The position numbers were made by a program, and so were the translations under genes. From Candidatus Multivoradales bacterium (GTDB taxonomy: Bacteria; Acidobacteriota; Thermoanaerobaculia; Multivoradales; J023), in contig CBDFLE010000006.1 of the NCBI GenBank assembly GCA_965248925.1, positions 4,096,001 through 4,160,000 of the forward strand: a stretch of DNA of 64,000 bases. The letters are read 5' to 3'. The notes below the pieces were generated by a model. The model did not search any database and was not told the DNA's origin. It saw nothing but the letters and a program-made list of their open reading frames with translations. Each line of letters begins with the position of its first letter. Position 1 is the stretch's first letter. This document shows positions 20,544 through 37,897 of the stretch, one piece after another.

Positions 20544-20799
20544 CGGCCCCAAGCCCCCTGGCCACCTACCCGTTCTGGTCGCGCATTCTGCCCAATGCGG
20601 CTCCATCCCGGCGATCGACAATACGTTCCGTCTTGATCCCACCAGACCTCTCAGGGCAATTCCGACGTGTACTCGAGGTTCTTCGGGTACTGGAGTCTGA
20701 GTTCTTGTCTTAATCCCACCAGACCTCTCAGGGCAATTCCGACCAAGCTGCACGGCGTCTGAGGTGCTCCCCATGGTTCTACCACGGCCAATGAGAGTT

Positions 20800-21645
20800 T
20801 TAGCACACTCTCATTTCTTGCTTGCTCATCGCACCAGCAAACTCAGCCGGCGGTAGGTTCCCCAACGAGCTGTGGGGACGTACATGGTTGTAGTCTATTC
20901 GCCAGTGCTCGATCTTGCGGCGAGCGTCTACTAAGTTCGTGAACCAGTGCAGGTTGCGGCACTCATCTCGCAGGCGGCCATTGAAGCTCTCCACAATACA
21001 GTTTTCGATGGGCTTGCCGGGCCGAATAAACAACAAGGTGACGGCGTTCTGGTAGGCCCACTCATCCAAGGCTCTGCTAGTAAACTCCGGGCCGTTGTCC
21101 ACCACAATCCGGTGCGGGTATCCTCGACTCTCGGCAACGCGATCTAGTACTCGGGCCACACGATGACCCGACAGGGACGTATCGACCTCGATAGCTACAC
21201 ACTCTCTCGTTGCCTCGTCCACAACGTTGAGAGCTCGGAAGCAGCGTCCACCTGCCAAAGTGTCGCTGATGAAGTCCATCGACCACTGCTCATTGGCTTG
21301 CTCAGGAACGACTCGCGGCAAGCGGTTTGCCTGCGCTACTCGCTTGCGCTTCCGGCGCCGCACAGCGAGCCCCAGGGCCTTGTAGAGCCGATAGACGCGC
21401 TTATGGTTGATCTGCTTGCCTTCGCGTCGTAGCAGCACATGCAGGCGCCTGTAGCCAAAGCGTGGCCGCTCGCCAGCGAGCTCTAGGAGTCTTTCCACTA
21501 CCTGTTCTTCATCAGGATTCTCTTGGCGGTGATAGCGCACCATCGAGCGACAGGTAGTCGCCAGACGGCACGCTCGGCGCTCACTACAACTGCGGCGCTC
21601 CCGGATCCACTCGACTGCCTCACGCCGGGTCGCGGGCGTCACCAT
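20800..21645 (-). CDS. IS3 transposase OrfB (DDE integrase core)
   Basis: [51 protein letters not shown]. Confidence 0.93.
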
Positions 21646-21905
21646 TTTCTCGACAGGGCTTCTTTGAGCACTTGCTTGTCCAGAGTTAACTCGGCAACAG
21701 CGACCTTTAGCCGCCGATTCTCCTGCTCTAGCTCTCGCAGTCGACGCGCCTCGCTGACCCCCATGCCACCGAACTTCGACTTCCACCGGTAGTAGGTTCC
21801 TTGGGACACGCCGTGTTCCCGGCATACGTCCTTCACTCGCTGCCCCGACTCCACTTGGTCGAGAACTCGGATGATCTGCTCTTCACTAAATCGGCTCTTG
21901 CGCAT
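21639..21905 (-). CDS. IS3 transposase OrfA (HTH and leucine zipper)
   Basis: [46 protein letters not shown]; ends AGAAAATGGTGA overlapping orfB in the -1 frame. Confidence 0.93.
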
Positions 21906-23860
21906 CGGCTCCTCCTCATGCCCAGTCTCTCATTTTGACTGGACCAGAATTCGGGGAGCACCTCACGTCAACACCATCCCTCGAGACGGAACCTGTCTTA
22001 ATCCCACCAGACCTCTCAGGGCAATTCCGACTCGAAAGAGGTGTTCGAAAATGGCCAAGCAAAGCCAGAGTCTTCATCCCACCAGACCTCTCAGGGCAAT
22101 TCCGACGACTTTTTTTTGGGGACACGATTCTGGGTATTCTGTCCCGTCTTCATCCCACCAGACCTCTCAGGGCAATTCCGACAGTGACGAGTGGCGGATG
22201 GTATTTGATTTGTCCGCAACGTCTTCATCCCACCAGACCTCTCAGGGCAATTCCGACTGGCTGACATTCCCATTCCTGACAGGATGGTGATGGAGGGTCT
22301 TCATCCCACCAGACCTCTCAGGGCAATTCCGACGCACGGAAGCAGTGGCCCGTGAGGCACAAGCCTCGCTGTCTTAATCCCACCAGACCTCTCAGGGCAA
22401 TTCCGACCGGACGAGACGGTTTTCGTCGTCACCGAGATCCTGGCTACAGTCTTAATCCCACCAGACCTCTCAGGGCAATTCCGACCGTTCAATTCCAGCG
22501 GCGCGGTTGCAGGCGAGTTCCACCGTCTTAATCCCACCAGACCTCTCAGGGCAATTCCGACAAGGCCGAGTGCTGCCGATCAACGGTGACTCCACCAACG
22601 TGTCTTAATCCCACCAGACCTCTCAGGGCAATTCCGACCACCTCTTTCGGGATGGTGGGATGATCATCACTTCTTGGTTGTCTTAATCCCACCAGACCTC
22701 TCAGGGCAATTCCGACTTGAACGGGATAGCATATATTTCATCCATCTCAGGATCAGTCTTAATCCCACCAGACCTCTCAGGGCAATTCCGACATAACAAT
22801 TGAAGAGTGCAAGCTAAAGTTTAAGGAAGGTCTTAATCCCACCAGACCTCTCAGGGCAATTCCGACCGAGTATGCAACGGGGAACCTTGTTGGAATCAGT
22901 GATGAGGGTCTTAATCCCACCAGACCTCTCAGGGCAATTCCGACAAGGCCGAGTGCTGCCGATCAACGGTGACTCCACCAACGTGTCTTAATCCCACCAG
23001 ACCTCTCAGGGCAATTCCGACCACCTCTTTCGGGATGGTGGGATGATCATCACTTCTTGGTTGTCTTAATCCCACCAGACCTCTCAGGGCAATTCCGACT
23101 TGAACGGGATAGCATATATTTCATCCATCTCAGGATCAGTCTTAATCCCACCAGACCTCTCAGGGCAATTCCGACATAACAATTGAAGAGTGCAAGCTAA
23201 AGTTTAAGGAAGGTCTTAATCCCACCAGACCTCTCAGGGCAATTCCGACCGAGTATGCAACGGGGAACCTTGTTGGAATCAGTGATGAGGGTCTTAATCC
23301 CACCAGACCTCTCAGGGCAATTCCGACTCTATTTGGAGGCCCTCTATTTGGAGGCCCTCGAGAAAATCGTCTTAATCCCACCAGACCTCTCAGGGCAATT
23401 CCGACTGTTTTGGGGGGTTTTACGCAACTTGGCAGGATTGGAGAGTCTTAATCCCACCAGACCTCTCAGGGCAATTCCGACAGCGTAGACGCAGGAGGCG
23501 GCAAGTATGTGGGTGGCCCGTCTTAATCCCACCAGACCTCTCAGGGCAATTCCGACCTTCCTTATGTTCCAACAGTCGGTCGGGTCAGTCAACCGTCTTC
23601 ATCCCACCAGACCTCTCAGGGCAATTCCGACGCACGGAAGCAGTGGCCCGTGAGGCACAAGCCTCGCTGTCTTAATCCCACCAGACCTCTCAGGGCAATT
23701 CCGACTTTCGATACTTAAATTCAGCGCCAAACTGGCATTTAAGCGTCTTAATCCCACCAGACCTCTCAGGGCAATTCCGACGTAAAGGTTCTCCTCGATC
23801 CTACTCCACTTACGTCTTTGTGTGTCTTAATCCCACCAGACCTCTCAGGGCAATTCCGAC

Positions 23861-24058: not shown

Positions 24059-24406
24059 CTAGTTAGCACCTTCCAGCTTCTGGCGCAGCCTGAAATCACG
24101 CCGTAAGGCTTGATCATCAGCCTGCGTGGCCGAATAGAGGGTTTGGATCGCTTCATTCAGCGACTCCTGCCGCACCCCGCCGATGATGGCGTAGAGGTGC
24201 ATACCCAGATCATGCGGCAGCTGGTCCTCGCCCATTTGTTGGCTATCCACGGGGATAGGCAGCATTCGACTGAGCTGGAACAGATGCTGATCGCAGCGCT
24301 GTAGCGAGATGACCAACTCGAGCAACTTGCTCTGCGCTTTGGCCAAGTCCAGCGGGCCATTTTGCCCCTGGAGGTTGATTGAGGTAGAGTAGTCGGAATC
24401 CGACAT
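24059..24406 (-). CDS. Small helical hypothetical protein (115 aa)
   Basis: GGGAGG RBS before ATG at 24406 (MSDSDYSTS...); amphipathic helical composition. Confidence 0.65.
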   Translation of the reverse strand: MSDSDYSTSINLQGQNGPLDLAKAQSKLLELVISLQRCDQHLFQLSRMLPIPVDSQQMGEDQLPHDLGMHLYAIIGGVRQESLNEAIQTLYSATQADDQALRRDFRLRQKLEGAN

Positions 24407-24587: not shown

Positions 24588-25577
24588 TCAAGTACCCATG
24601 CGAAAGCCATTGTATTCGACTCCCTCTAGAGCCTCTCTGTAGCGCTCTACTTGGCGACGAAAGAGCTCACGGTAGCAGAGCCGAGCACCGCCGACGGAAA
24701 CCTCACCTTCGAGTGCCTTCTCCCAAGCCGGGAAGAATCTTTTTTGACCCAAACGGGTCAGCCGAACACCTTTGTTGGGATGTTTTCGAAAATGCTCAAG
24801 CCGCAGGATCTTTGTTCTGACCAGGCGGAGCACGAAACGATCGACCAATGGGGCTCGAAACTCCTCGAGTAGATCCAAGGCCAAGGACGGCCGCCCGTAT
24901 TGAGTTTGATGCAGCACCCCCAGGTAGGGATCAAATCCCATGCCGTCCAGCAACGCCTGCAGCTCCACGCCGGCCAAGACATAGGCGAATGAGAGTAGCG
25001 CGTTGACCGGGTCCGGGGGAGGGCGGCGTTTGCGGCCTGGGAACTCGAACGGCGCCGGGATGAGCTTGGCCAGCAGAGAGAAGTGGCGGCGGGCAGCGGC
25101 TCCCTCGGTGCCCAGCAAAGACCCCATCGAACCCGCTTCGAGAGCCTGAGCGGCGGCTGATTTCAGCTCGCGAATCTCGCTCAGCGGGACTTCCTTGGGA
25201 TGGTTGCCGCGAAACCGCTGCCACACAGCCGCCGCTCCGCGGATCTTGTTGCTGACCAGACGACGGCTCAGATCGAGGCAGAAGTCAGGATCGACCGATC
25301 TTTCGTACTGCCGCAGACGAAGATGGACATTCTTGGTCTCTGGCGGTGTTAGCTGGCCGCGGAGGCGGCCGTTGCGCGATAGCAAGGCTAGCTCAATGCC
25401 GTGGTCCAGCATCTCTACCGCCGCCTGCGTGGTAAACTGAACGTTGCCGAATAGCATTACTGTGGTCAGCTTCCTGCACGGCACTTCGAGCAAGATGCGG
25501 TCGTCCTTTTCTACATAAAGACGGTCACTGGTTTTGCGGACGATCGCTTGCTGTTCGGTGATGTAGAGGGTTGTCAT
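24588..25577 (-). CDS. cas1: CRISPR-associated endonuclease Cas1
   Basis: MTTLYITEQ, LLGTEGAAA, RRPPPDPVNALLSFAY, GFDPYLGVLH, SLALDLLEEFR. Confidence 0.97.
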   Translation of the reverse strand: MTTLYITEQQAIVRKTSDRLYVEKDDRILLEVPCRKLTTVMLFGNVQFTTQAAVEMLDHGIELALLSRNGRLRGQLTPPETKNVHLRLRQYERSVDPDFCLDLSRRLVSNKIRGAAAVWQRFRGNHPKEVPLSEIRELKSAAAQALEAGSMGSLLGTEGAAARRHFSLLAKLIPAPFEFPGRKRRPPPDPVNALLSFAYVLAGVELQALLDGMGFDPYLGVLHQTQYGRPSLALDLLEEFRAPLVDRFVLRLVRTKILRLEHFRKHPNKGVRLTRLGQKRFFPAWEKALEGEVSVGGARLCYRELFRRQVERYREALEGVEYNGFRMGT

Positions 25578-26533
25578 ATCGAACTCTCCTTGCTGGCGAC
25601 CGAGCGCAGCTCGATATAGCGTCGTAGCCCAAGAGCCTGGGGCAGCGACGGCCGGCGCCGCTCTCGCTTCGCAGTGTCGAATGGGCGATAGATGGCATCG
25701 CCCACGAAGAGGGCGCCGAGAAAGCGAAAGCCACGCTCGAAGTTAGTCACCGAGGTCTTGGTGGGTTCGAGCAGCAGCTCCAGCTCGGCCAGCAACTCAT
25801 CGGCTACTCCCAGGGCGGTTTCGGCAGCAGGCTCGTCGCGGCAGAGGAGAATGAAGTCGTCGCCGTAGCGAACCGCCTGTTGACCGCGTCGCATCAGCTC
25901 CTCGTCGAACCGGTCGAGAAAGAGGTTGGACAGCATCGGTGAGACCACAGACCCCTGCGGTAGGCCCGCTTTGAGCTGCCAGATCGAAGTCCCATCGTAG
26001 ACTTCGGCGCAGACCCACAGCTCGATCAGAGTTTCTAAGTAAGGGTGAAGAGAGAGTTCCTTGACCCGACCCATCAATAGCCGATGGTCTACGCTGTCGA
26101 AAAAGTCGTCGATATCGGCGTCGACCACCCAGCGGAAACCGCGATCACGAAGATCTCTGACTCGCAACACCGCGTCTCTGACCGAGCGCCCGGTTCGATA
26201 GGCGAAGCTGCTGTCCTCGAAGCTAGCTTCGAAGCGTTCGCGACAGAGGAGATAGACGGCGCTCTGGGCGACCCGGTCGCGCACCGTCGGCACGCTCAAC
26301 CAGCGCTGACCGCCGTTCGGCTTGCCGACCGCAAAGCGCATCAGCGGCAGAGGGCAATAGACCCGGCGCGCCAGTGAGTTGGCGAGATCGTCGAGTTCGT
26401 AGTCCAAGCGGGCTCTGAAGCCGCCAAGATCCTGCCCATCGCAGCCGCGGCAGCCGCCGTTCTTGGCCACCCGCTCGAAGGCTCGGTGAAGCAGGCCGCA
26501 GGACGTCAGCTCTGCCATCAGTTCGTCGTTCAC
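25574..26533 (-). CDS. CRISPR-associated stand-alone reverse transcriptase (group II intron-like RT domain)
   Basis: KPNGGQRWLSVPTVRDRVAQ, SFAYRTGRS, DADIDDFFD, GLPQGSVVSPMLSNLFL, RYGDDF, GFRFLG; no maturase or endonuclease tail; sits between cas2 and cas1. Confidence 0.93.
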   Translation of the reverse strand: MNDELMAELTSCGLLHRAFERVAKNGGCRGCDGQDLGGFRARLDYELDDLANSLARRVYCPLPLMRFAVGKPNGGQRWLSVPTVRDRVAQSAVYLLCRERFEASFEDSSFAYRTGRSVRDAVLRVRDLRDRGFRWVVDADIDDFFDSVDHRLLMGRVKELSLHPYLETLIELWVCAEVYDGTSIWQLKAGLPQGSVVSPMLSNLFLDRFDEELMRRGQQAVRYGDDFILLCRDEPAAETALGVADELLAELELLLEPTKTSVTNFERGFRFLGALFVGDAIYRPFDTAKRERRRPSLPQALGLRRYIELRSVASKESSI

Positions 26534-26805
26534 AGGACGTAGACCTCCGGGTCATGGGTTAGCTCGCCGACCCCGAGAATCCGTACTCGCGGATGGCATT
26601 GCCCGCATAGCAGGTAGAGCCGCAAGCTGTCGACTTCTGGGTCGATCTCACGGGCTGTCGCGGCCTCCAGCTCCGCGATGCCCGTCGGCTCCAACCAGCA
26701 CTCGAAGACCGACAGCTGGACCCGCCGGCCGAAATCCTCGAGCCGGTGCGCCAGCCGGGTGCGGCGGCGGTCGTCTGAGATGTCATAAGAAATCAGCACT
26801 AGCAT
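26530..26805 (-). CDS. cas2: CRISPR-associated endonuclease Cas2
   Basis: MLVLISYDISDDRRR, RVQLSVFEC, DSLRLYLLC; start reassigned to ATG 26805 with GGAG RBS. Confidence 0.95.
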   Translation of the reverse strand: MLVLISYDISDDRRRTRLAHRLEDFGRRVQLSVFECWLEPTGIAELEAATAREIDPEVDSLRLYLLCGQCHPRVRILGVGELTHDPEVYVL

Positions 26806-26968
26806 CAAGGGCTCCAGCAGCCGGCGAAGTTCCAAATCGGCCGGCTCTGATTGGGTAGACCCCATCTCTCGGCCCGAGGGTGGAGAAGAATTCCGAAATA
26901 ATCTGCCGGATTCGACGCCCTGCTCCAACTTTGGTTCCGGCTTCGCTTATTTGGTCCATAATCTGTGC

Positions 26969-28969
26969 ATGGACTACCAAAATCTGTGGATCAACTTGCA
27001 GTCGCGGGGAGAGGAAGAGATCGTTGTCGAGCATATGGTGAAGCACCCGAGCGGGGACCGGCCGCTGCGGCTCGCGTTTGCCGTGGGTGATATTCAGCGC
27101 CGCCTCGCCGAGCTCGAGAAGTTGATCATCACCTGCGCGTCACAGAACCCTGATCCGAAGGTGGCCCTTGATACCGCGGAGGCCACCAAGCTGGCTAGCG
27201 CGAAAGCCAAGCTCGCTGAGTTGCAGGAAGAGCTGGGTTGCAGCTTGTATGAGGCGATCTTCTACGAACACCATGCGGGGATCGTCGCCGACCTCTGGCA
27301 CAAGCACAAGAGCCTCCGCCTGCGGCTGACCATCGATCCCAGCGATAGCAGGGTCGCGCCGCTACTCAGCTTGCCGTGGGAGCTGATGCGAGCAAGGGAG
27401 CAAGGCGATGCCTATGCTCGACTCCGTCAGACTCCCATGGTGAGGTACGGGATAGTTCCCCGCCAAGTTGTCGAGAGTCTTGCCGGGGAGGTCGGGGAGC
27501 TGCCCGAGTCTCCCGAGCTACGGGTCCTCTTTGCCGCTGCTTCTCCCGACCAGCCCGAGCGGGCGATCGACATCGACGGTTTCCGAGAGTGGCTGGAGCA
27601 AGGTATGGCGAGCGCTCAGAAGCTCGCGCCCAAGGTGCTTTCGCAGACCACAATCCAGTCTCTGGATGCGGCGTTGCGGGACTCAGAACCTCACATCTTG
27701 GTGTTGCTCAGTCACGGAGTGTTCGATCCGCAAGACGGCATCGGCTATTTGGGTCTAAAGGATCAGGATCAGGATATGGCCTCTGTGACCGACTCCGCAT
27801 TTGCCGAGATTCTCAAGGGCAAGGCCTCCCTGCGTCTGGTAGTTCTGGCGACCTGCTCCGGTGGGGCCTTGCGTCGGCGGGGTGATCAGCATCCCTATGC
27901 CAATGTTGCGGCGGCATTGTTGCTAGCCGGAATGCCCGCGGTCATTGCGATGCAGCACCCGATATCTGAGGAGGCGGTGCGGACGTTCTGCCGCGCCATG
28001 TTCGCCGATCTGGCCAAGAACTTGCCGGTAGAGGCCGCTGTTGCGGCGGGCCGCATGGCGATCTACCAGCACCCGACACACAGCCTGGAGTGGGCCACGC
28101 CGGTTCTGTTTAGCCGCGCGGACGATGGCCGGTTGGTCGCCTTGCCGGAAGAGCCGGAAGAGCAGGAACTCGGATTGGACTACGGGCAGCGGTTGCCGCT
28201 GCGGGCCGCTATTCGCAGCATCGGCCGCGGCTGGGGAGTCGAAATCGAGCAGCAGGGGCTGGCGGACCGATGGCTCAAGCTTGAAGATCACTTCCGGCCC
28301 GATCGTTTTAGGGTTCTCAAGAACCCGGATGCCTGGAATACGGTGCTATTTCCCGCGGTTGCCGACTTTCTCGAACAGGTGAGGTCAGAAGGCCGGCCCG
28401 TAGAGCTTATCTTGCCCTGTTGCGGCAGCCTCGCGTTCGCTGCCGGCTATTCAATGGAAAGATGCAACGTGCCGGTATCGGTGGTTCAGCGGGCCCGCTC
28501 CAAACGCTTCTTTCTCTGGCCCGATCGGGGACCAGAGGATGGCAAGGGTTGCGAAGGTCCGGATTGGCGGGTCGAAGAGCGGGAACTCGGCGAGCAGGGA
28601 GGCCTCGCTGTGGCACTGAGCGTGTCGACGCCAATCCACAAACATCTGAATAGCTTTATTGACCACCAACGCTTCCCAGCAGTCCGCCGGGTAGTTTGGT
28701 TCGAGCCCGAGGGCGGAGCCCACCCAACGGCGATCTTCGGGGCGGCACATGCGCGCAGACTAGTTCAGGACTTGATGCTCTGGCTGCTCAAGAACGTGAC
28801 GGTCGAAGAAGAGAAGGCGGGCCTGCACATCTTCTTTGCGGCCCCCAACAGCCTGATGTTCTATCTCGGCCAGCAGGCGGCGAGCCTGTCCCGAGTACAG
28901 ATCTGGGAACTACCATTCGGCATGGGTAGACCCGGAGAGTATGATCCGGCGATCCGGCTGCCCCTCTGA
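26969..28969 (+). CDS. CHAT-SAVED fusion: putative cyclic-oligonucleotide-activated caspase-like protease
   Basis: CHAT: LPWELM, LRVLFAAASP, LSHGVFD (His), LVVLATCSG (Cys), AVIAMQ, EWATPVLF; SAVED: SLAFAAGY, LAVALSVS, LHIFFAAPNSLMFYLGQ, YDPAIRL. Confidence 0.88.
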   Translation: MDYQNLWINLQSRGEEEIVVEHMVKHPSGDRPLRLAFAVGDIQRRLAELEKLIITCASQNPDPKVALDTAEATKLASAKAKLAELQEELGCSLYEAIFYEHHAGIVADLWHKHKSLRLRLTIDPSDSRVAPLLSLPWELMRAREQGDAYARLRQTPMVRYGIVPRQVVESLAGEVGELPESPELRVLFAAASPDQPERAIDIDGFREWLEQGMASAQKLAPKVLSQTTIQSLDAALRDSEPHILVLLSHGVFDPQDGIGYLGLKDQDQDMASVTDSAFAEILKGKASLRLVVLATCSGGALRRRGDQHPYANVAAALLLAGMPAVIAMQHPISEEAVRTFCRAMFADLAKNLPVEAAVAAGRMAIYQHPTHSLEWATPVLFSRADDGRLVALPEEPEEQELGLDYGQRLPLRAAIRSIGRGWGVEIEQQGLADRWLKLEDHFRPDRFRVLKNPDAWNTVLFPAVADFLEQVRSEGRPVELILPCCGSLAFAAGYSMERCNVPVSVVQRARSKRFFLWPDRGPEDGKGCEGPDWRVEERELGEQGGLAVALSVSTPIHKHLNSFIDHQRFPAVRRVVWFEPEGGAHPTAIFGAAHARRLVQDLMLWLLKNVTVEEEKAGLHIFFAAPNSLMFYLGQQAASLSRVQIWELPFGMGRPGEYDPAIRLPL

Positions 28970-29014
28970 GGCTGAGTCGCAAGAGAAGGGGCAGCCGGGC
29001 TCTGCTCAATCGGC

Positions 29015-29990: not shown

Positions 29991-31130
29991 TCAGGGTTTT
30001 TCACCCAACAGGCGGATGATCTTGAGAGTCCGCATATGCGGCTTGTCGTTTCGCGCTTTGCCCAGAAGGCGCGGGCGCCAGTGATCTTGCGCCAGCATCA
30101 GTTCCTTTGCCTTGCGGGCGGCGCGCAGTAGCTCGTCGCCCTGCCAGGTGTTCTTGTAAAGCCCCTCGACAATCAACTCGTAGTCGGGCTTCTTGCGGCG
30201 AATCGCTTTTTCGGCGAGCTTGGCGAGGGAGCGGTCGAAAGGATCGAGGGCGGCATATCCGGCGTGGCGTTCCTGGGTGTCGAGCTGTCGTTCGAGCCTG
30301 GAGAGGATTCTCTTGTCTCCGGGAATCAGCTGGCCATAACCTGCCGCGGTCTTGGCGCCAGCTCCCAGCAGGTCAAGGGCCTGGCGCATCTCTGCAAAAG
30401 CCGCCGGCACCTCGGCACGGGCTGTCTCCGTGCGGGCCGCTATCTGGACGAGGAATGATGGCTGCTTGGCCACCAGGAACTTCACCGGGTTGGGACTGTG
30501 AAAATCCCCAGGCAGAAGCTCGGCGGAGTCGGCCGAATCGATCTCCTCGATTTGATCACCGCGCTCGTACCACTTGCCCATGTGCGGTGTCATCACATCT
30601 ACTACCAGCGATGGTGCGGTGATCGGTAGTGCATCGAAGAAGATCAGATCGCCGGCTCGATCGGGCTTGCCGGGTTGCTCGGGCTCACCCAACCAGCGGC
30701 GACGGCGCTCTTGGCATAGCTCAGCGGTTTCTCCGGACCATTCCTCGAGCCACCCCCGCAGTATGCCCTTGACCGCCGTGCCGGTCAGATAGGGGACTCC
30801 CAGCGTAGGGTGCCAGGCAAAACCATTCTCCAGCGGGTGCGGCAGACCGAGGCCGGATGCGAAGTGCCAGCTGGCCTGAAGCTCACGGCTCTCGGCCCCG
30901 AGCGAACGGCCCAGACGCAGCAGGCGTAGGGCCGTCGCTTCGGGTAGCTCCGTGTCGCTACAGGTGGCCTGTGCCAAGTCTCTAAGCCAGTGATTCTTGG
31001 TGTCGGGATCGTCGAGAGTCCAACCTTCTTCATAGCGAAAGAAGCGGCTGTGCCAGAGGCCCAGATGGGCGCCGGCCGGTGGTCTGTTGGGAGCGCCATG
31101 GCCACGGTATAGGGGCAGCTCAGTCATCAC
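29991..31130 (-). CDS. cmr6: Type III-B RAMP Cmr6
   Basis: GLGLPHPLENGFAWHPTLGVPYLTGTAVKG, FFDALP, DVMTPH, PNPVKFL, GAGAKTAAGYG. Confidence 0.96.
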   Translation of the reverse strand: MMTELPLYRGHGAPNRPPAGAHLGLWHSRFFRYEEGWTLDDPDTKNHWLRDLAQATCSDTELPEATALRLLRLGRSLGAESRELQASWHFASGLGLPHPLENGFAWHPTLGVPYLTGTAVKGILRGWLEEWSGETAELCQERRRRWLGEPEQPGKPDRAGDLIFFDALPITAPSLVVDVMTPHMGKWYERGDQIEEIDSADSAELLPGDFHSPNPVKFLVAKQPSFLVQIAARTETARAEVPAAFAEMRQALDLLGAGAKTAAGYGQLIPGDKRILSRLERQLDTQERHAGYAALDPFDRSLAKLAEKAIRRKKPDYELIVEGLYKNTWQGDELLRAARKAKELMLAQDHWRPRLLGKARNDKPHMRTLKIIRLLGEKP

Positions 31131-31548
31131 TGGCCTCCTCGCTCTCTGACTGGTTGTCCTCGTCCAAGAAGGCTGTTGCGAATTTGCGCACCCACTCCAT
31201 CAGGGCCATGGCCTCGGTTTGGGCGACCCGATAGTGAAACATCTTGGTCTTGGTGATGCCGGTCAGCAGATCGTCGTATTCCTCCAGAGGCTGGCCGGCC
31301 TGTGTCATCCACTCCGAGACAATGTTGTACAGCTCGCCGTGACTGCCGCCCTTCATTTTGCTGAAAGCAGCTGCCTGGCCGAGCCCATTCATGCGAATCA
31401 TGGCTGGCAACTCTTGGGCGTAGGCGCGAAACTCCTTGGCCTTGAGTTCGTTCGCGGCGATCTTCGTATTGACGGTGTTGATGATCCGTTTGAGGGCGAA
31501 CGCTGCGCGTCGCTGTTCGATGGTTTGCGGTACGGCTGCGGGGTCCAT
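31120..31548 (-). CDS. cmr5: Type III-B small subunit Cmr5
   Basis: TIEQRRAAFA, LPAMIRMNGLGQAAAF, YRVAQTEAMALMEWVRKFA. Confidence 0.93.
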   Translation of the reverse strand: MDPAAVPQTIEQRRAAFALKRIINTVNTKIAANELKAKEFRAYAQELPAMIRMNGLGQAAAFSKMKGGSHGELYNIVSEWMTQAGQPLEEYDDLLTGITKTKMFHYRVAQTEAMALMEWVRKFATAFLDEDNQSESEEASDD

Positions 31549-31550
31549 GC

Positions 31551-32429
31551 TCAGCCCTCCACGGTGGGGAGTTGAACTCGGCACCAGCCCATGCCAACGG
31601 TTTCGTTACCTCCGAGCTGTAGGTAAGGCTGCTCGCCGAAGAGCTGAGCTAGGGTTTCACTCAGCACCTGAGCCGAACTCTTCTTCAGATCGCTACGCGA
31701 GGCCCACGCGGCCAGCGCTACGTAGAGCAGAGTGTCTGGCGGCAGGGTTTCCTCATACCAGAGGGCGCCGGATTCCACCGTCTTCGTCTTGTTGTCGATC
31801 CGCACATGCGCTGCCACAGGAACCGCGAAGCGGGCCAGATATCCGAACAGGTCGTCGTCGACGACGGCCAGCTGCTCGCTCAAGCGATCTCCAGCTTGGG
31901 GATCGGGGAACAGGTCGGCGAGCTCCCCTATCACGCTAGTGAGATCCCCGGTGACGACCTCCAGGCGAAACTCCTCGAGGAAGAGCAGGCTGTCGCTACT
32001 ACCAGCTGGCAGTATTGCCTTGTCAACGGCTGGCAGGGGTAGAGCTTCGGTGGCGGGACTGCCGCCGAGCCGTTGCCGATCTTCGCGCAGGCGGCGCAGC
32101 AAGGCCGGGCAGGTGACCCATTTGAAGTGACCGGTGAGTGAGCGAACCGGCAGCAGCACGAGCCGAGCGTCGCCGACGATCAGGGCGCCAGCGTGGTCGG
32201 ATGCGTTGTCGGTGTCAGGACCGAAGATCGACCAGCGCAGGTCTTTGGGCATCTGACGATCTTCGGCGCGGGCGCGGAGCGCTCCTTTGACCGCGCTGCC
32301 GTAGACACACGGCCAGTCGGTGTGTGCCTCGCGCTGGATGGGCAAGTCAATAGGTCCGGCGCTGTGGCCGGCGCCGGCGTGGATCGAGGTTTCGGCCAGC
32401 AGGCCGAGGATGGCGGTGGGTTGTTTCAC
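31551..32429 (-). CDS. cmr4: Type III-B RAMP Cmr4 (target RNase)
   Basis: ETSIHAGAG, IDLPIQRE (catalytic Asp), GSAVKGALR, DARLVLLPVRS, ALWYEETLP, LQLGGNETVGMG. Confidence 0.96.
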   Translation of the reverse strand: MKQPTAILGLLAETSIHAGAGHSAGPIDLPIQREAHTDWPCVYGSAVKGALRARAEDRQMPKDLRWSIFGPDTDNASDHAGALIVGDARLVLLPVRSLTGHFKWVTCPALLRRLREDRQRLGGSPATEALPLPAVDKAILPAGSSDSLLFLEEFRLEVVTGDLTSVIGELADLFPDPQAGDRLSEQLAVVDDDLFGYLARFAVPVAAHVRIDNKTKTVESGALWYEETLPPDTLLYVALAAWASRSDLKKSSAQVLSETLAQLFGEQPYLQLGGNETVGMGWCRVQLPTVEG

Positions 32430-32470
32430 GATTGCGGACTCCTTGATTGAGTGATCGGATTGGTTGGGGC

Positions 32471-33676
32471 TCAGTCGGCCCACAAGCCCACGGCTAACAG
32501 ACCGCGGCCGAGTTGGGTGTCATAGCCAATCGATGTGCCGTGGAGGATGGCGATGGCTTCGTCGATGGCGCCCTCGTCGACTGTGCATAGCCAGACACTG
32601 CCGGCGGGCACCAGGCTGCGGACTGGGTGCGATCGATGATTGGCGAGATCCCAGCCGCCTTCGCGAATGGGTTTGCCGAGGATTGCTGAGTGCAAGGTCA
32701 GAGGGACCTGCAGAGCGATGGACTCACCTCGCCGGGGTTCGGCGTCGCAGCGGGTGTTCCAGATCTCGGGATCGAAGCCGGGAGCTGGATTCAGTCCCTC
32801 CGGCCGCCAACGGCAGCGACCGAAGTCGGCATGGGTCAGCAGGCACAGTGCCAGCCAGCGTTGACCTGGCTCTGGCCGAGGAGCGTGGGGGAGCTTGGCC
32901 GTTTGGTCTCTGACACTCACCATCGCCATTCGGCCTTCGCCGCCGAATCGCACCGGTGATCGCGGTTGGTGGAGTCGGGGGTTAACCTTGTCAGCCCGCA
33001 ACTCGACGTCTATTTCTACTGCCAGCTGGTGGTTAGGTCGCAGGTGGCGAGTCTGATAGAGCAGCCCTTCTTTAACGGTGCGCAGTGCATTCTCACGGGC
33101 GATCCCGAGCCGTGGCTCTTCGGGTACCAGTGGTGCGAGCAGGACGACATCGTCGCTGGCAGGTAGCTCGCCTGCCAGCGTTTGTCGCAGGCCCTGAAGG
33201 GTTAGCCAAGCACGGTCGAGAGGCTTGGCATGGTCTCCAGTAGGTAGTTGCGGCAGGCGAACTCTGCCCAAGTCACACTTCTCTGCTGAACCCAAAGCGA
33301 GACGGACGATTCCCTGCTTGCCCTCGCCGCGTGACATCAGAAAGGCCGGAGCGGGGAAGAGGCGTTCGGTGGTGCCGCTGTCGTTGCGCCGGGTGAGCCA
33401 AGGGCCAGCGAAGTGCAGCGAACCGAGGTCGTCGCCAAAACCTATCCAGCCTTGCAGGCTGCCGCCGGATGGCCCGGCCTGGTCCTTGGCGACGCGGAAG
33501 TCATTCCAATTAACCCCGACGCTCTCGCCCATCAGGAATCGGGTGGCTCCGGCAAGGGTCCGAGCCGGTGGTGGGAAGACGCTGCCGAGCTCTAAGCCGC
33601 CAACGACACCGTGGGGACGGGATTCGCGGAAGAACCAGGTGTCGTGGGCTTCGTAGCGCCAGGTCTCGACGGTCAT
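32471..33676 (-). CDS. cmr3: Type III-B Cmr3 (Cas5 family)
   Basis: DTWFFRESRP, FPPPARTLAGA, EPRLGI, RFGGEGR, GGWDL, PAGSVW, LGRG. Confidence 0.95.
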   Translation of the reverse strand: MTVETWRYEAHDTWFFRESRPHGVVGGLELGSVFPPPARTLAGATRFLMGESVGVNWNDFRVAKDQAGPSGGSLQGWIGFGDDLGSLHFAGPWLTRRNDSGTTERLFPAPAFLMSRGEGKQGIVRLALGSAEKCDLGRVRLPQLPTGDHAKPLDRAWLTLQGLRQTLAGELPASDDVVLLAPLVPEEPRLGIARENALRTVKEGLLYQTRHLRPNHQLAVEIDVELRADKVNPRLHQPRSPVRFGGEGRMAMVSVRDQTAKLPHAPRPEPGQRWLALCLLTHADFGRCRWRPEGLNPAPGFDPEIWNTRCDAEPRRGESIALQVPLTLHSAILGKPIREGGWDLANHRSHPVRSLVPAGSVWLCTVDEGAIDEAIAILHGTSIGYDTQLGRGLLAVGLWAD

Positions 33677-35670
33677 GCCTCTACCCCCTTGCGGGCCAGA
33701 AAGCGCACTAGCAGCGCGCCGTCGGCCTGGAGTTGATCGGTGATCTCGAAGGTAACGTCATCCTTTGGTGGGTCATTGTTCACATGCCTGATTTGCGGGC
33801 GGCATTGCCGCAGCAAACGCTCCACGGTCGGCTGTACCTGATCCGTCGTCGGCCTCTTTTCGCCATGGACTCCGGAACTGATGTATTCGGCTGTCATCAG
33901 TTTGAGGGCCTGTTCAGAAGTGAGATGCTCTTGATCCGTGTGGCGTGGATTGAGCAGTGCGAAGAGTTCACGGATGCGATAGAAGAAACGGCTTGAGAAA
34001 ACACTCTCTTCCGGTTGCTTAGGTCTACCAGACTCATTTCCCGAGGGACTCCGTAGTTCGTCTACCAATGCTTCCAGCACCAGCCGTTGATCCTTGCCTT
34101 CGACCGGCTCGTCGAGAGCCGCTTCCCAGGGCATCGCCCAGGCCATGAGCTGACCGCCAGGTGCCCAGACCCGCACTGCCAGAGAATCGCGACCACAGCC
34201 ATCCTTGGCGACGTTGTCCAGCAGGTGGTGGGAGTTGCTCAGCACTCTGCTCAGCGGCACCCGAAAGTGGGCGTATTCGATGGCGCCCGAGAGGGTGGAA
34301 CGTACAGGTTTGCCGACTGCGTCGACCTTGCTGGCGAAGCATGCTTCGTAGTGATCTCGCAGCTTACGAGCGCAGGGCATCGCTTGGTCCAGGGACAACA
34401 TTGCCAGGACATCATCGCCCCCGGCGTAGATCAGAAACCCGCTTTGGGCGTCGACGATTTTCTTGACCTGACCAGTGAACTTCCCCAATGCCTTGCTGAT
34501 GGGTTCTTGCCGGTCGACAATCGACATCTGCTTGCCGAGCGCGTCACCGTCCATTCGCAGGATCGAGTAGTAGGGAGATGGATGGGCGATGTCTTTTGCC
34601 CTGGCTTGATCACGCAGCACTTCGAGGGCTTCGCGGGCGTGTTTCTTGGTCTCCTCAGGAACGTCTTTGAAGAGGTTCGGGTTGAGCAGGGTTTCCTTGA
34701 AGAATAGCGAGCCATCGAGTGAGCGGAAGAAGTGGGCGGGGGCGCCGCTCGTCTTTCCGGCTTGGCGCAGGCACTCGAGATCGATCTTCCATTCGCCGTA
34801 GTTACCGGTGACTTCCCGGGCAGCTAGGGTGAAGGTTTCGACCGCCGAGGGATCAATTTTCTGGCTGACGATCTGTTCGATCCAGGGCACCGCCGCCAAG
34901 TAGGCCACCGATGGGACGGCGGTGGGGAGTTTCCAGCCTCGCAGCATCCAGCCTCCCGGCATTTCAGCCTTGAGGCATTTGAAGTGACGAGCGAACCGCC
35001 GCTTGACAAAGGCCATGGCACAGAGCTGCTCGCCCTCACGAAAGTCGGTGGTGTTGCAGCTCTGCGCGATACTCTTCCAGAACTCCTTGCGGCGGTCGCG
35101 GTCGTCTTTACCTTCGCCCTGGATCCCCGAGAGTTCTTGCCAGCCGTCCATCACCAGGCATTTGGCCCCTGGTTCGTCGGGCGCCAGGTGGTTACGCCAG
35201 TTCTTGCGCCGGTCGATCAGGTCGCTGTGCTGATCATCAGGTGCTACCGCCCAGTAGATCTCCCAGAAACTCTTGACTTGACGATTCCAGATTCTACGAC
35301 TTTCGGATTCCTCACCTAGCGCTGCGAGATCTCTCTTCCAAAGTTCCTCTGCAAGTTGGTGCCAGGCTTCGCGTACAGTTTCCGCGATGCGCTTTGCAAC
35401 GAATCCTTCTTCTATCTTTGCTTTGAATCGATTCGGTACGGACCCTTGGGTAGGTGAGAACTTCGCCTTGTTTCCCTGCGTCAGGCACTTGATGAATTCC
35501 GGGTCTGGGGCGGGGAAGGTGATCCTGCCATCCTGCTGTTGCACAGCTTTCATCGCGACCGCAGATAGAAACGAGAGGATGAATGACCCAGCCCAAAAAT
35601 CGCGAGTCCTTCTGGCTTGCTCGACGAAACTCTGAACTGGTCCGATGGTGAAGTGAAAGTGCTGGCTCAC
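33673..35670 (-). CDS. cas10: Cas10/Cmr2 lacking an HD domain, intact cyclase Palm motif
   Basis: Starts at FHFTIGPVQSFVEQARRTRDFWAGSFILS; YYSILRMDGDALGK; IYAGGDDVL; only 665 aa. Confidence 0.96.
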   Translation of the reverse strand: MSQHFHFTIGPVQSFVEQARRTRDFWAGSFILSFLSAVAMKAVQQQDGRITFPAPDPEFIKCLTQGNKAKFSPTQGSVPNRFKAKIEEGFVAKRIAETVREAWHQLAEELWKRDLAALGEESESRRIWNRQVKSFWEIYWAVAPDDQHSDLIDRRKNWRNHLAPDEPGAKCLVMDGWQELSGIQGEGKDDRDRRKEFWKSIAQSCNTTDFREGEQLCAMAFVKRRFARHFKCLKAEMPGGWMLRGWKLPTAVPSVAYLAAVPWIEQIVSQKIDPSAVETFTLAAREVTGNYGEWKIDLECLRQAGKTSGAPAHFFRSLDGSLFFKETLLNPNLFKDVPEETKKHAREALEVLRDQARAKDIAHPSPYYSILRMDGDALGKQMSIVDRQEPISKALGKFTGQVKKIVDAQSGFLIYAGGDDVLAMLSLDQAMPCARKLRDHYEACFASKVDAVGKPVRSTLSGAIEYAHFRVPLSRVLSNSHHLLDNVAKDGCGRDSLAVRVWAPGGQLMAWAMPWEAALDEPVEGKDQRLVLEALVDELRSPSGNESGRPKQPEESVFSSRFFYRIRELFALLNPRHTDQEHLTSEQALKLMTAEYISSGVHGEKRPTTDQVQPTVERLLRQCRPQIRHVNNDPPKDDVTFEITDQLQADGALLVRFLARKGVEA

Positions 35671-36857
35671 GGCAGTAGGTCCTTTCGTTCCGAAAAGCGA
35701 TCGAGAAAGTCTGTGATGTGCTTGAAGTTGGGTTGAGGGACTAGGTCGGGAGTCCTTCCAGTGATCGAAATCTTGTCGCCGGATGGTAGAAAGATGGCTG
35801 GTAGAAGGGTGTGAAATGCAGCGTGACTTCCGTTGGGAAACTGATGAATGTGCAGCAAGAGAGGAGAAGCACGGCGAGCGCGCCGTTCGCCTGTGGGCTC
35901 CACTTCTAGCCTTCGTCTCGCTATTGGTATGTGTCCTGGCGAGGAGAAGAAGTAGTTGTGGGGCAAGCCGAATACGATACGGCCGGGTAGCTGCTCGGCA
36001 ACGCCTCCCATCATCGCTTTCTGCATTTCATTGTGATCATCCGGGAAGTTCTGTTCCGCTCTTTGGCCCAGGACCTTGTGGTATGAGTCTTGCGGCCGAC
36101 GAAGTCCCCAACTACGATAGAACATCATTTTTCTTCCGACACCCTCGAGTAGTTGCCAGCCATTCGCCGTTGAGGACTTGGTCGAGCAGTGGACCTTGCT
36201 CATCTTGGAAAAGGCGGTTAGCGGAGGTAGATCGCTGCCGAGGTCGGGCAGATTGTCGTTGAGTTGTAATTTCAGCTCATCAAGGGTTCTCGGAATCTTT
36301 ATCGCAGCTCCTTCTAATGACTCCAGTACGACACTGCCCATTCCATGGCGTGAGCGACTGCCGAGCCCACCCAGCATTCCCCACAGCCATAGGGCTCTTG
36401 AGATGCTGGCGATCGATGCGTCATCTTTATTCCGCAAGCGAATACGGACTGTGAAAGAGGTGTCGGGCTTGAACGCTTTGCGTAGGCAGCGATCTCTGAA
36501 GTGGAACAGGCCCATTCCGAGGAGATACCCTTGGCCGGGTCCCGCGTCAGGCTTGTAGGTTGAGCCTCCTGTTGCGATCGACGTTCTGATCAACATGCGC
36601 TGCCCGCCTTGTTCTTCGCCACCTTCAATCTTGCTAGCCGCTCCAAACAGCCTTGTTTCCCGCTGATGCAGCTCGCACAGCGCCGCGGCTGGGTCCGCAT
36701 GCTCAACACAAACCCGCGGCCACTCCGAAGCCCGCCACCAAAACCGCAACGCTCCACGAATCGAAGGTGGTCGCAAGCTGCTCGGCTTCTGATCAGCGTC
36801 GCCGAGGAACATCGGCGTGGTTATCCGATAAGTCGCTGAGATCTCATGCCCTCTCAT
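35667..36857 (-). CDS. cmr1: Type III-B RAMP Cmr1
   Basis: ITTPMFLG, LRPPSIRGALRFWWRA, LFG, GGLGSRSRHGMG, FGLP, RRASPL. Confidence 0.95.
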   Translation of the reverse strand: MRGHEISATYRITTPMFLGDADQKPSSLRPPSIRGALRFWWRASEWPRVCVEHADPAAALCELHQRETRLFGAASKIEGGEEQGGQRMLIRTSIATGGSTYKPDAGPGQGYLLGMGLFHFRDRCLRKAFKPDTSFTVRIRLRNKDDASIASISRALWLWGMLGGLGSRSRHGMGSVVLESLEGAAIKIPRTLDELKLQLNDNLPDLGSDLPPLTAFSKMSKVHCSTKSSTANGWQLLEGVGRKMMFYRSWGLRRPQDSYHKVLGQRAEQNFPDDHNEMQKAMMGGVAEQLPGRIVFGLPHNYFFSSPGHIPIARRRLEVEPTGERRARRASPLLLHIHQFPNGSHAAFHTLLPAIFLPSGDKISITGRTPDLVPQPNFKHITDFLDRFSERKDLLP

Positions 36858-37897
36858 CGCCCCACCTCAACCTGCCCCAACCCAAACGCCGTACTCTTCC
36901 CCACATGCAGCACCTCTGCCGCCCTGAGCATTGGCCACAGCGGCTCGATCTCCCCATCAAGGTCAATCTCGCCAACAAAACCACCCATCGACAGATGGCG
37001 CTGCTGCCGATTGCTCCAGCGTTGCCAGGTTTCCCAACGCAGCCGCTCGGCGACGATCTCTATTTGGTCGGCGAGATCAAGATAGGGGCGGAAGGTCCAG
37101 TCAACCTCGATGCTGGGGCAGTGGAAGTGAGCCAGCTCGAGCTGGCGTCGCAGCATCTTGAAGGCCAAGGTGCGGAAGCTGTGGCAGCGCTCGATAACTT
37201 GGCTGTGGACTTTGAGCCGGCAGGGGGTGAGGAAGCGCAGGGTGATCGGTCCGCTGGGCGCCTTGCTGCTCGGCTGAGTGCTGGCGACTACCGGCTGCCA
37301 GCGGCGCTGGCGGCGTTGGTAGCCGCTTTGCCAGTGGCCGTCTCGGTCTTGCCAGCGCACTTCGTGCAGCTCGAAGGGCCAACGCTGACTACCAAGCCCG
37401 GCTTGGGCCATGCCGTCGATCGCCAACAAGACCTGACCCTGGAGCTCGGTGGCTTGGCCGATCAGCAGCAAGTCGAAGTCGAAGTGCTCGCCGGTGGCGA
37501 AGTCGCGACGCAGGTCTGAGGCTTCGATGACGTAGGGGCGGGGGGCGCTCACGGAGCCGCCGAGCAGCGGCGGCGGCTCGCCTTCGATGCGGTTTTCATA
37601 CATCCGGCTGTAGGCGCAGCCAAGGCGCAGGGCGCAGCTGGGACAGCGGGTGCCGGCGGGCTGGCTGCACACCAGGCGGCGCAGGGCATGGCCCAGGGCG
37701 CCGCGCAGCATGGAGCCTTTTTGGGTGTTGAGCCGCGCCGGCCGCTGGGCTTCGAGGGTGCATCGCAGCCGCAGGTGGGGAATGCTCGGTAGGGTGTAGG
37801 CCCGCGCCCAAGCTCTGGGGGCGTCGGACAGGGGTGGTGTCGAGACCTCAGCGGTCCGGCGGTCCGGGGCGACGGGTTGCAGGGGTTGAAGGCTCAT
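36854..37897 (-). CDS. cas6: crRNA-processing endoribonuclease Cas6
   Basis: GSMLRGALG, Cys cluster, PRPYVI, LRFLTP, C-terminal Gly loop HVGKSTAFGLG. Confidence 0.92.
   Translation of the reverse strand: MSLQPLQPVAPDRRTAEVSTPPLSDAPRAWARAYTLPSIPHLRLRCTLEAQRPARLNTQKGSMLRGALGHALRRLVCSQPAGTRCPSCALRLGCAYSRMYENRIEGEPPPLLGGSVSAPRPYVIEASDLRRDFATGEHFDFDLLLIGQATELQGQVLLAIDGMAQAGLGSQRWPFELHEVRWQDRDGHWQSGYQRRQRRWQPVVASTQPSSKAPSGPITLRFLTPCRLKVHSQVIERCHSFRTLAFKMLRRQLELAHFHCPSIEVDWTFRPYLDLADQIEIVAERLRWETWQRWSNRQQRHLSMGGFVGEIDLDGEIEPLWPMLRAAEVLHVGKSTAFGLGQVEVGR

Follow-up and report, generated by a model that had tools for sequence, protein, structure and literature searches.

The stretch analyzed here (the window) is 64,000 nucleotides of a Candidatus Multivoradales bacterium genome of 7.98 Mb and 96.9% completeness (contig CBDFLE010000006.1, positions 4,096,001 to 4,160,000). 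It carries a complete CRISPR-Cas locus of type III-B that, in the combined explanation we prefer, works by signaling and is wired into an extracytoplasmic function (ECF) sigma switch of the DdvS/DdvA kind known from Myxococcus xanthus; we put the probability of this explanation at roughly 55%. Genes were mapped from an open reading frame (ORF) listing and three hidden Markov model (HMM) libraries, and all coordinates are those of the window unless a contig or locus is named. The CRISPR-Cas genes extend from the first array repeat at 20630 to the start of cas6 at 37897, the limits given in an earlier note on this DNA, which had also recognized the locus as type III-B; family matches to Cas10/Cmr2, Cmr1, Cmr3, Cmr4, Cmr5, Cmr6, and Cas6, together with a 27-repeat array, bear this out, and the HMM annotation that the note had recommended yields domain calls that agree with the families it named.

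Cas6 and the Cmr subunits are encoded on the minus strand by cas6 (36854..37897; PADLOC Cas6, 8.4e-87), cmr1 (35667..36857; PADLOC Cmr1, 3.6e-20), cas10/cmr2 (33673..35670; 665 amino acids [aa]), cmr3 (32471..33676; PF09700, 3.3e-53), cmr4 (31551..32483; TIGR02580, 1e-66), cmr5 (31120..31584; PF09701, 8.5e-28), and cmr6 (29991..31130; TIGR01898, 4.4e-27). Another ORF considered as cmr5, 31127-31597, is in the wrong frame, since the PF09701 match falls in 31120-31584. Cmr4 keeps an Asp at the alignment column of the Pyrococcus furiosus Cmr4 Asp that we take to be the catalytic residue, so the complex probably still cleaves target RNA. Cas10 has a Cmr2_N domain at its N terminus (residues 6-108, E = 5.6e-21) and a palm 2 domain (E = 1e-31) with the motif YAGGDDVLA. 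We regard it as lacking an HD domain because it begins at Cmr2_N, because it aligns from residue 8 with P. furiosus Cmr2 delta-HD constructs (YAGGDDVLA lying opposite their GGDD), and because the PADLOC Cas10 model PDLC01444 is covered only from position 126 of 605; in addition, the start of cas10 overlaps the cmr1 stop, and there is no room upstream for an HD domain. With its palm 2 GGDD, the protein is predicted to be cyclase competent. Such a Cas10 is ordinary: an HD domain is given for only 39% of the 1113 loci in a published survey (PMC11229360).

Two putative effector genes accompany the cmr operon. The CHAT-SAVED gene (26969..28969, plus strand; longest ORF from 26951) matches CHAT at 9e-23 and SAVED at 1.1e-16. 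Its N-terminal CHAT domain contains His255 and Cys302, a dyad kept by all 14 of the aligned homologs, and its C-terminal SAVED domain is of the Cap4 type: the family profile matches Cap4 (PDB 7yia) at E = 8e-50, while its match to 8tl0, the Haliangium ochraceum SAVED-CHAT protein, is confined to the CHAT part (residues 282-453) and leaves the SAVED domain of 8tl0 unmatched. Likening the window protein to the Haliangium type, as the earlier note did, thus fails on two counts: the domain order is reversed, and the SAVED domain matches Cap4 instead. The second gene, directly downstream of cmr6, encodes a Cam1-like 2TM-CARF protein (29227..29976, minus strand; PADLOC CARF_TM, 7.8e-30, and CARF_2M, 1.8e-18). 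Residues 68-217 form a CARF domain that matches Cam1 (PDB 8t64) at E = 8.9e-16, and the protein has the CARF motif FVDTTGG.VPMSIGAFQAAEE in common with Nitrosococcus halophilus Cam1 (NhCam1). Two hydrophobic segments, 6-24 and 41-59, precede the CARF domain; PADLOC has a separate "CARF, 2 TMs" model, which matches the window protein. The family comprises 97 homologs, and an Asp at the start of the second transmembrane (TM) segment is conserved in 10 of 15 aligned members, judged by eye.

Three further genes flank this core, and they are central to our explanation. A TPR-CHAT gene (18012..20543, plus strand; 843 aa; CHAT, 5.6e-59, plus TPR families) ends 87 bp before the oldest array repeat, and beyond cas6 lie genes for an ECF sigma factor (38873..39517, plus strand; Sigma70_r2/r4) and an anti-sigma factor (39540..40298, plus strand; NF052375, 7e-10; 252 aa). 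The His702 and Cys751 residues of TPR-CHAT occupy nearly invariant and invariant alignment columns, respectively. By eye, its N terminus is a signal peptide with a lipobox-like Cys, and a hydrophobic stretch ending in an L-x-x-C-like lipobox is seen in 10 of 14 TPR-CHAT N termini; it is predicted to be a periplasmic lipoprotein, on the same side of the membrane as the C-terminal domain of the anti-sigma. The anti-sigma consists of a cytoplasmic N-terminal domain without Zn ligands, a TM segment at about residues 114-134, and a periplasmic C-terminal domain of about 120 aa. One TM segment is found in all nine anti-sigma orthologs, the aligned segment of the window protein being weaker. PDB sequence searches revealed no homology to DdvA or DdvS, the sigma returning only generic ECF sigmas, and a PDB profile search with the TPR-CHAT alignment was dominated by TPR proteins.

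The significance of these flanking genes comes from related loci. A genome scan with the single CHAT-SAVED protein gave no relative; we used as query an alignment of CHAT-SAVED with 13 homologs carrying both domains, and scanned a set of one genome per species and a metagenome collection. From each scan 80 loci were kept (160 CHAT-related loci), of which 22 (12 genome and 10 metagenome) matched both the CHAT and the SAVED parts. Neighbors in these 22 loci, several of which end at contig ends, were identified by tblastn with window proteins. An ECF sigma gene directly follows CHAT-SAVED in 18 of 22 loci (12/12 genome, 6/10 metagenome), an anti-sigma match (E ≤ 1e-5) is present in 17 (11/12 and 6/10), TPR-CHAT in 16 (12/12 and 4/10), and type III genes are found no more than 10 kb away in 14 (9/12 and 5/10). 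Two of the loci (L089 and L093) end inside the sigma gene, L142 is too short, and in L085 and L088 no sigma/anti-sigma/TPR-CHAT triad was seen. In L012 and L092, CHAT-SAVED, sigma, anti-sigma, and TPR-CHAT stand between cas6 (or Cap4) and cas10. L009:5255-20184 reads TRIP13, CD-NTase, and Cap4 (CBASS, the cyclic-oligonucleotide-based antiphage signaling system), then CHAT-SAVED, sigma, anti-sigma, and TPR-CHAT, then cmr1, cas10, and cmr3, and is the closest in layout to the M. xanthus island among the loci seen. The metagenomic L086:1152-6548 encodes a separate reverse transcriptase (RT), Cas1, and Cas2 at 49-53% identity to those of the window, and a Cas6 at 49%; its CHAT-SAVED is followed by a III-D Cas10, with the sigma pair 7.4 kb away, another dispersed arrangement. 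The window copy is rearranged: its TPR-CHAT, CHAT-SAVED, and sigma/anti-sigma genes are separated by the adaptation genes plus array and by the cmr operon. Judged by gene content, the window locus belongs, in rearranged form, to a conserved module that is akin to the Ddv island. The earlier note, which took CHAT-SAVED, the 2TM-CARF protein, and two small ORFs for the only ancillary genes, overlooked the TPR-CHAT, ECF sigma, and anti-sigma genes that accompany CHAT-SAVED in relatives.

Because the genome is rich in sigma and TPR-CHAT paralogs, we built trees into which 18 TPR-CHAT and 17 related ECF sigma genes from elsewhere in it were entered, using only high-scoring segment pairs (HSPs) that covered at least 40% of the query. 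The window sigma grouped with seven module copies (L006-L012; Shimodaira-Hasegawa approximate likelihood ratio test [SH-aLRT] support, 97) to the exclusion of the 17 own-genome paralogs, and the window TPR-CHAT with the same seven CHAT-SAVED-linked copies (SH-aLRT, 98) to the exclusion of the 18. By this placement, the window sigma and TPR-CHAT are orthologs of the CHAT-SAVED-linked genes of relatives. The CHAT-SAVED tree had 21 rows (L018, L062, and L142, with HSPs not spanning both domains, were left out); in it the window copy falls outside a 12-member clade, at a position that is not resolved.

As for how the locus might act on an invader, the signaling components stand out. Models for Csx1, Csm6, Can, NucC, and ring nucleases matched none of the scanned locus ORFs. 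Genome-wide, the CARF models PDLC01360, PDLC01031, and PDLC01880 each match only the Cam1-like gene, SAVED is found in only two genes, both CHAT-SAVED, and CD-NTase in one. With relatives' NucC and Cap4 proteins, tblastn found no match in the 7.98-Mb genome; for NucC, absence rests on this search with a relative's protein, the PADLOC NucC model being silent in controls too. The Csx3 model likewise had no match in the genome but was silent in controls as well, and among ring nucleases Crn2 was not found genome-wide, while Csx15/16/20, Crn1-like, Crn3, and Crn4 were not specifically searched. These scans agree with the earlier note that the locus has no recognizable nuclease effector, and they turned up none of the CARF, SAVED, NucC, or Cap4 kinds elsewhere in the genome that could supply immunity in its stead. 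Together with the HD-less GGDD Cas10, which the note had also described, they uphold its view of a system reliant on signaling: defense is probably exerted through second messengers and not through DNA cleavage by Cas10. Since the Cam1-like gene and two CHAT-SAVED genes are the only CARF and SAVED genes found in a genome whose Cas10 here has GGDD and no HD, two parallel arms, one acting at the membrane and one by proteolysis, are plausible.

The likeliest ligands can be suggested from family relationships and neighbors. The motif shared with NhCam1 favors cyclic tetraadenylate (cA4) as ligand of the Cam1-like protein. NucC adjoins CHAT-SAVED in 3 of 22 related loci (L006, L049, and L088), with a remnant in L010, and CD-NTase does so in L009 and L085 (2/22) as well as in the III-D locus of this genome; along with the Cap4-type SAVED domain, these neighbors favor a cyclic trinucleotide ligand for CHAT-SAVED and hint at cyclic triadenylate (cA3). 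One could then suppose, as the earlier note in effect did, that the Cmr locus is self-contained, with CHAT-SAVED and the 2TM-CARF protein as independent arms responding to cA3 and cA4, and with sigma, anti-sigma, and TPR-CHAT as irrelevant neighbors. Both sensors are present, no other cyclic oligoadenylate (cOA) sensor having been found in the genome; the co-occurring NucC speaks for cA3 as the CHAT-SAVED ligand, and the CARF protein resembles the cA4-binding Cam1; and triads are so numerous in this genome that a chance neighbor is conceivable. We nevertheless consider this possible but doubtful. The flanking sigma and TPR-CHAT genes are, among 17 to 18 paralogs, specifically the orthologs of CHAT-SAVED-linked copies, which places the locus inside a conserved sigma/anti-sigma/TPR-CHAT context. 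Mixed-signal loci are very rare, with one example among the 1113 loci of the survey (PMC11229360), in which SAVED-CHAT occurs in three; SAVED ligands are unreadable from sequence; and a CARF-TM effector that binds cA3 has been described (PMC13577387), so that CARF-TM proteins are not confined to cA4.

The pairing of the two effectors sets the window apart: the Cam1-like gene was found by tblastn in none of the 22 CHAT-SAVED loci, and the Cam1-like plus CHAT-SAVED combination is new relative to them. Among 401 sampled genomes of the phylum, the Cam1-like gene occurs in two, the host and G266; the latter has cas10-cmr3-cmr1-cmr4-cmr6-cam1 without CHAT-SAVED, in the same cmr6-cam1 order as in the window.

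The genome has a second type III locus (C6:285500-310300; L003 and L004), all on one strand, with a sigma, an anti-sigma, TPR-CHAT, a second CHAT-SAVED, CD-NTase, E2, and a type III-D module whose Cas10 has GGDD and lacks HD; two genes for Cas6-RT-Cas1 fusions (957 and 980 aa) border the locus. The second CHAT-SAVED is 28% identical to that of the window (E = 3e-48), and in the trees the sigma and TPR-CHAT of this locus pair with those of L049. The presence of the sole CD-NTase of the genome there, 3.8 Mb away, raises the prospect that the window CHAT-SAVED is a CBASS effector served mainly by that enzyme and not by the Cmr Cas10, as its Cap4/CBASS-type SAVED domain and the paralogous CHAT-SAVED beside CD-NTase and E2 would allow. 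We judge this improbable: the CD-NTase already has a CHAT-SAVED neighbor of its own, the window gene is embedded between cas2 and cam1/cmr6, and in relatives CHAT-SAVED adjoins type III genes in 14 of 22 loci but CD-NTase in only 2 (L009 and L085).

Promoter motifs provide a further line of evidence. The element GTCCAACA-N14-CGTGTC was first seen upstream of CHAT-SAVED in six relatives. In the form GTCCAACA-N14-yGTGTn it occurs at 23 sites in 164 loci (2.09 Mb), 22 of them in 10 module loci, where they precede CHAT-SAVED, cas6, cas10/cmr, NucC, TRIP13, or Cap4 units, some as divergent pairs; six of these sites defined the motif, and 16 are independent finds. Its AAC (-35) and CGT (-10) cores are those of DdvS promoters (PMC6061681), and we predict ECF-type promoters before the defense operons of relatives. 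In the host genome, a different promoter-like element, CCACCC-N16-GGTCTA, has three exact matches, all upstream of cas operons: at 37988..38015 (minus strand), about 91 bp upstream of cas6; at 26856..26883 (minus strand), about 51 bp upstream of cas2; and upstream of a Cas6-RT-Cas1 gene of the III-D locus, with a near-copy 4.6 kb beyond that last site.

The adaptation genes lie on the minus strand as cas2 (26530..26805; PF09827, 3e-20, residues 42-112, the true start being Met42 of the longest ORF), a stand-alone group-II-intron-like RT (25574..26533; RVT_1, 1.1e-31; PADLOC RT, 1.2e-82; YGDD), and cas1 (24588..25577; PF01867, 5.8e-86); the family-matched, separate RT with YGDD beside Cas1 and Cas2 accords with the RT-based adaptation that had been proposed. 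The array (20630..23860, minus strand) consists of 27 repeats, each of 37 nt, with 26 spacers between them, of which 20 are unique: a five-spacer block is present in two exact copies with a 383-bp period (22525-23271), and one further spacer occurs twice (as spacers 7 and 24; 22297-22407 and 23595-23705), which suggests recombination between repeats. Transcription is probably on the minus strand from a leader at 23861-24058. The minus-strand repeat ends in ATTAAGAC, which resembles the usual type III 8-nt tag. Outside the array the genome has no further copy of the repeat, and a full-length self-target was found for none of the spacers. An IS3-family insertion sequence of 1206 bp (20760..21965, minus strand; transpos_IS3, 6e-74; rve/HTH_21), which has inverted repeats at its termini and a 4-bp duplication of its target, is cleanly inserted in a 41-nt spacer between repeats 2 and 3 and splits the two oldest repeats from the remaining array.

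Downstream of cas1 is a gene for a small conserved protein of 115 aa (24059..24406, minus strand). All of its 53 homologous cluster representatives (E ≤ 1e-3) cover residues ~85-180 of the long ORF 24059-24610; family members have 95-140 aa. The protein is helical, with no Pfam or PDB match and one weak paralog, at C6:2508765, and it was found in none of the 164 loci. Of the small ORFs previously noted, 24059-24610 is thus probably a real gene in its 115-aa part; the others look spurious: 28941-29255, which is Cys/Ser-rich and has no family match, overlaps the CARF gene at its 3' end, and 20007-20774, likewise without a family match, is an antisense shadow of TPR-CHAT. Inside the end of cas1, at 24548-24577 (minus strand), is a strong (11/12) match to a sigma-70-like promoter (TTGACA-18-TATACT); it stands upstream of the 115-aa ORF, leader, and array, and matches of this kind are no more numerous in the region than in shuffles. 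Rfam, at gathering score, had no match in 16000-42000.

Several observations weigh against a sigma switch that controls this locus. Unlike its orthologs, the window TPR-CHAT lacks an N-terminal beta domain of about 120 aa, and the module is dispersed in the window. In the tree, the window CHAT-SAVED does not fall with the L006-L012 clade that holds the flanking sigma and TPR-CHAT; it has a long branch (1.62) and joins the pair formed by the genome's own III-D copy and L049 (SH-aLRT, 92), possibly by long-branch attraction. The anti-sigma profile matches six places in the host genome, where tblastn alone had shown no paralog, and it is found in 54 of the 401 sampled phylum genomes (the unpublished G049 included); SAVED occurs in 15 of the 401, and the two together in only 2. 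Triads of sigma, anti-sigma, and TPR-CHAT are frequent, and most of them have no link to SAVED, which makes neighborhood alone weak evidence. The relatives' motif has no match in the window at ≤1 mismatch per half-site and none relevantly placed at ≤3 mismatches in total, and neither the sigma, the CHAT-SAVED, nor the TPR-CHAT gene of the window has a motif upstream. As for CCACCC-N16-GGTCTA, two of its three sites define the motif and, by our estimate from composition, about two exact matches per genome are expected; the evidence therefore lies in where the third site is placed and in the similarity that extends around it.

The N-terminal loss in TPR-CHAT and the IS3 insertion in the array also mean that parts of the system may be decaying. 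Taken further, the locus would be a decaying mosaic of cmr plus cam1, CHAT-SAVED, a block of adaptation genes, and dispersed parts of a triad, in which some components no longer function; the duplicated spacers, the dispersed module, the occurrence of the cmr6-cam1 block alone in G266, and the very long CHAT-SAVED branch would all fit. All 17 listed genes are open frames, however, the motifs are intact where checked (GGDD, the Cmr4 Asp, YGDD, and both CHAT dyads), and the insertion separates only the two oldest repeats, so a mosaic of this kind appears very unlikely.

Under the sigma-switch explanation, relatives and the Ddv precedent suggest that an envelope cue would reach the periplasmic TPR-CHAT lipoprotein, which would act on the periplasmic domain of the anti-sigma; the released ECF sigma would then raise transcription of the cas, cmr, and effector operons. 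Cas6 and Cmr1-6, loaded with CRISPR RNA, would recognize target RNA, with RNA-derived spacers possible through the stand-alone RT and Cas1-Cas2. From what is known of the families involved, the HD-less GGDD Cas10 would make cOAs. The Cam1-like 2TM-CARF protein, co-transcribed with cmr6, would depolarize the membrane, most likely upon binding cA4, and the CBASS-type CHAT-SAVED would oligomerize and cleave protein substrates, most likely in response to a cyclic trinucleotide such as cA3.

What CHAT-SAVED cleaves bears on a variant that resembles CalpL: cOA-activated CHAT-SAVED would cut the cytoplasmic part of the anti-sigma, thereby freeing sigma and boosting defense gene expression in a feed-forward manner. 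CHAT-SAVED stands directly before the sigma/anti-sigma pair in 18 of 22 loci, with one predicted promoter in common, and CRISPR-linked proteases that free a sigma have precedents in CalpL/CalpT/CalpS and Csx29/Csx30 (10.1101/2023.06.23.546230). But co-transcription accounts for the adjacency without any enzyme-substrate relation, most triads lack CHAT-SAVED, CHAT-SAVED occurs without a triad in L085 and L088, and no conserved cleavage motif was identified in the anti-sigma alignment; we find such a loop rather unlikely. If it did operate, the anti-sigma would integrate a periplasmic input from TPR-CHAT and a cytoplasmic one from CHAT-SAVED. The fullest form of that idea, a two-input switch in which TPR-CHAT cuts the anti-sigma outside upon an envelope or phage-adsorption cue and cOA-activated CHAT-SAVED cuts it inside upon target-RNA recognition, is a little less likely still. 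Were it true, type III recognition would feed forward onto sigma-dependent CRISPR, CBASS, and effector expression, and an adaptive immune system would be coupled to an ECF sigma circuit. The wide spread of triads marks them as a general signaling unit, one clade of which is tied to type III/CBASS, and makes a role in regulation more likely than an obligatory tie to CHAT-SAVED as protease and substrate. Triads are present in multiple copies in this genome (for example, C6:461137-467537, C6:1217023-1222238, C6:5041254-5047547, and C5:1911744-1921078). Several of them have a Peptidase_C14 (caspase-like) gene close by, as do L018, L062, and L090 after TPR-CHAT; PF00656 (Peptidase_C14) matches eight places in the genome, all of them outside the window and the III-D locus.

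Other genes lie near the locus. Between cas6 and sigma lies a gene for a Uma2-family PD-(D/E)xK-like protein (38088..38693, minus strand; PF05685, 1.8e-31; PADLOC candidate PDC-S03, 5.9e-35) with five paralogous matches elsewhere in the genome; its tie to the CRISPR system is a candidate at most. Directly upstream of TPR-CHAT, at 16925-17537 (minus strand), are a HigB-like toxin gene (PF05015, 6e-14) and a helix-turn-helix antitoxin-like gene. The gene at 7851-13712 (plus strand) codes for a surface-type protein of 1954 aa that has DUF11/SdrD repeats and, at its C terminus, a Peptidase_C25 domain. The Ddv operon of M. xanthus also includes a C25 peptidase; we rejected a tie between the two, as the window gene has five paralogous matches elsewhere in the genome, and the 164 loci contain none. 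Farther downstream, 49300-57050 contains long tandem repeats, with a motif every 1433 bp (49323, 50756, and 52189) and four 173-aa RTX-repeat ORFs at a 1259-bp period (52746-57044), and a second, unrelated ECF sigma gene (PF07638) adjoins a Ser/Thr kinase gene with TPR repeats at 57124-60394 (minus strand).

Parts of this system have counterparts among known type III systems. Type III-E craspase (gRAMP, the TPR-CHAT protein Csx29, Csx30/31, and a sigma) likewise links TPR-CHAT and a sigma to type III, but there is no gRAMP here, and the window TPR-CHAT, as it carries an export signal, would be unable to dock on a cytoplasmic effector complex. In CalpL-CalpT-CalpS, as in our relatives, an anti-sigma/ECF sigma pair accompanies the gene for a SAVED protease (cOA-sensing in CalpL) in type III loci (PMC11229360; 10.1101/2023.06.23.546230); the protease is of the Lon type there and of the CHAT type here, and the anti-sigma here, unlike CalpT, is predicted to span the membrane and to be accompanied by a periplasmic protease. 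The Haliangium SAVED-CHAT/PCaspase system (10.1101/2023.06.23.546230; 8tl0) also combines type III-B with a CBASS-derived fusion of SAVED sensor and CHAT protease and has a sigma gene nearby; it differs in domain order, CHAT occupying residues 282-453 of 496 in 8tl0 and the N terminus in the window protein, and the window locus has no Peptidase_C14 partner, kinase, or inhibitor gene. With NhCam1 (PMC10808066; 8t64) the Cam1-like protein shares a homologous CARF domain, the motif TGGK.PMS.GAF.AAEE, an N-terminal membrane anchor, and a gene position within a type III locus. NhCam1 has one helix in the membrane (PMC10808066), whereas the window protein has two predicted TM segments, a length of 249 aa versus 206, and, in its family, the conserved Asp at the start of the second TM segment. 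The pairing of this protein with CHAT-SAVED would offer a natural test of one Cas10 serving two effectors through one or two cOA species.

By gene content and domain architecture, the closest known system is the M. xanthus DdvS/DdvA CBASS-CRISPR island, in which a CD-NTase plus CHAT-SAVED CBASS, the DdvS/DdvA operon, a second CBASS, and a type III-B system are all DdvS dependent (PMC11506125; PMC6061681). DdvS is an ECF sigma, and DdvA is an anti-sigma fused to a periplasmic TPR-CHAT, whose self-cleavage is proposed as the first step of regulated proteolysis (PMC11506125; PMC6061681); the authors state that validation of DdvA clipping must wait until the signal has been identified. In common with that island, an ECF sigma and a single-pass anti-sigma occur with an N-terminal-CHAT/C-terminal-SAVED gene and type III-B Cmr, the TPR-CHAT protease domain faces the periplasm (here predicted from N termini by eye), AAC/CGT ECF-type promoters precede defense operons (experimental there, predicted in relatives here), and a CD-NTase/E2 CBASS is present, here in the second locus of the genome. 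The window differs in that its sigma is not detectably close to DdvS, the PDB search returning only generic ECF sigmas, that its anti-sigma domain lacks Zn ligands and its locus a CD-NTase, and that it adds the Cam1-like effector and the RT among dispersed genes. Most distinctive is the split: the 252-aa anti-sigma and the 843-aa TPR-CHAT lipoprotein are separate here, and a single protein of about 1000 aa there. We found no description of the split form in the literature searched (a search that did not extend to table S7 of PMC11506125 or to the PMC11229360 locus tables), and in PMC11506125 fused DdvA-like proteins are reported only in Myxococcota and one Comamonas. Because anti-sigma and TPR-CHAT are one polypeptide in M. 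xanthus and are encoded separately here, a cleavage assay with two purified proteins becomes possible, and each protease-substrate step can be tested separately, which bears on how type III loci are switched on and on what CHAT-SAVED proteases cut. The relatives described here are labeled Acidobacteriota/Thermoanaerobaculia; our analysis would carry the association of an ECF switch with type III/CBASS defense into a second phylum, and it supplies a candidate promoter motif for reporter tests.

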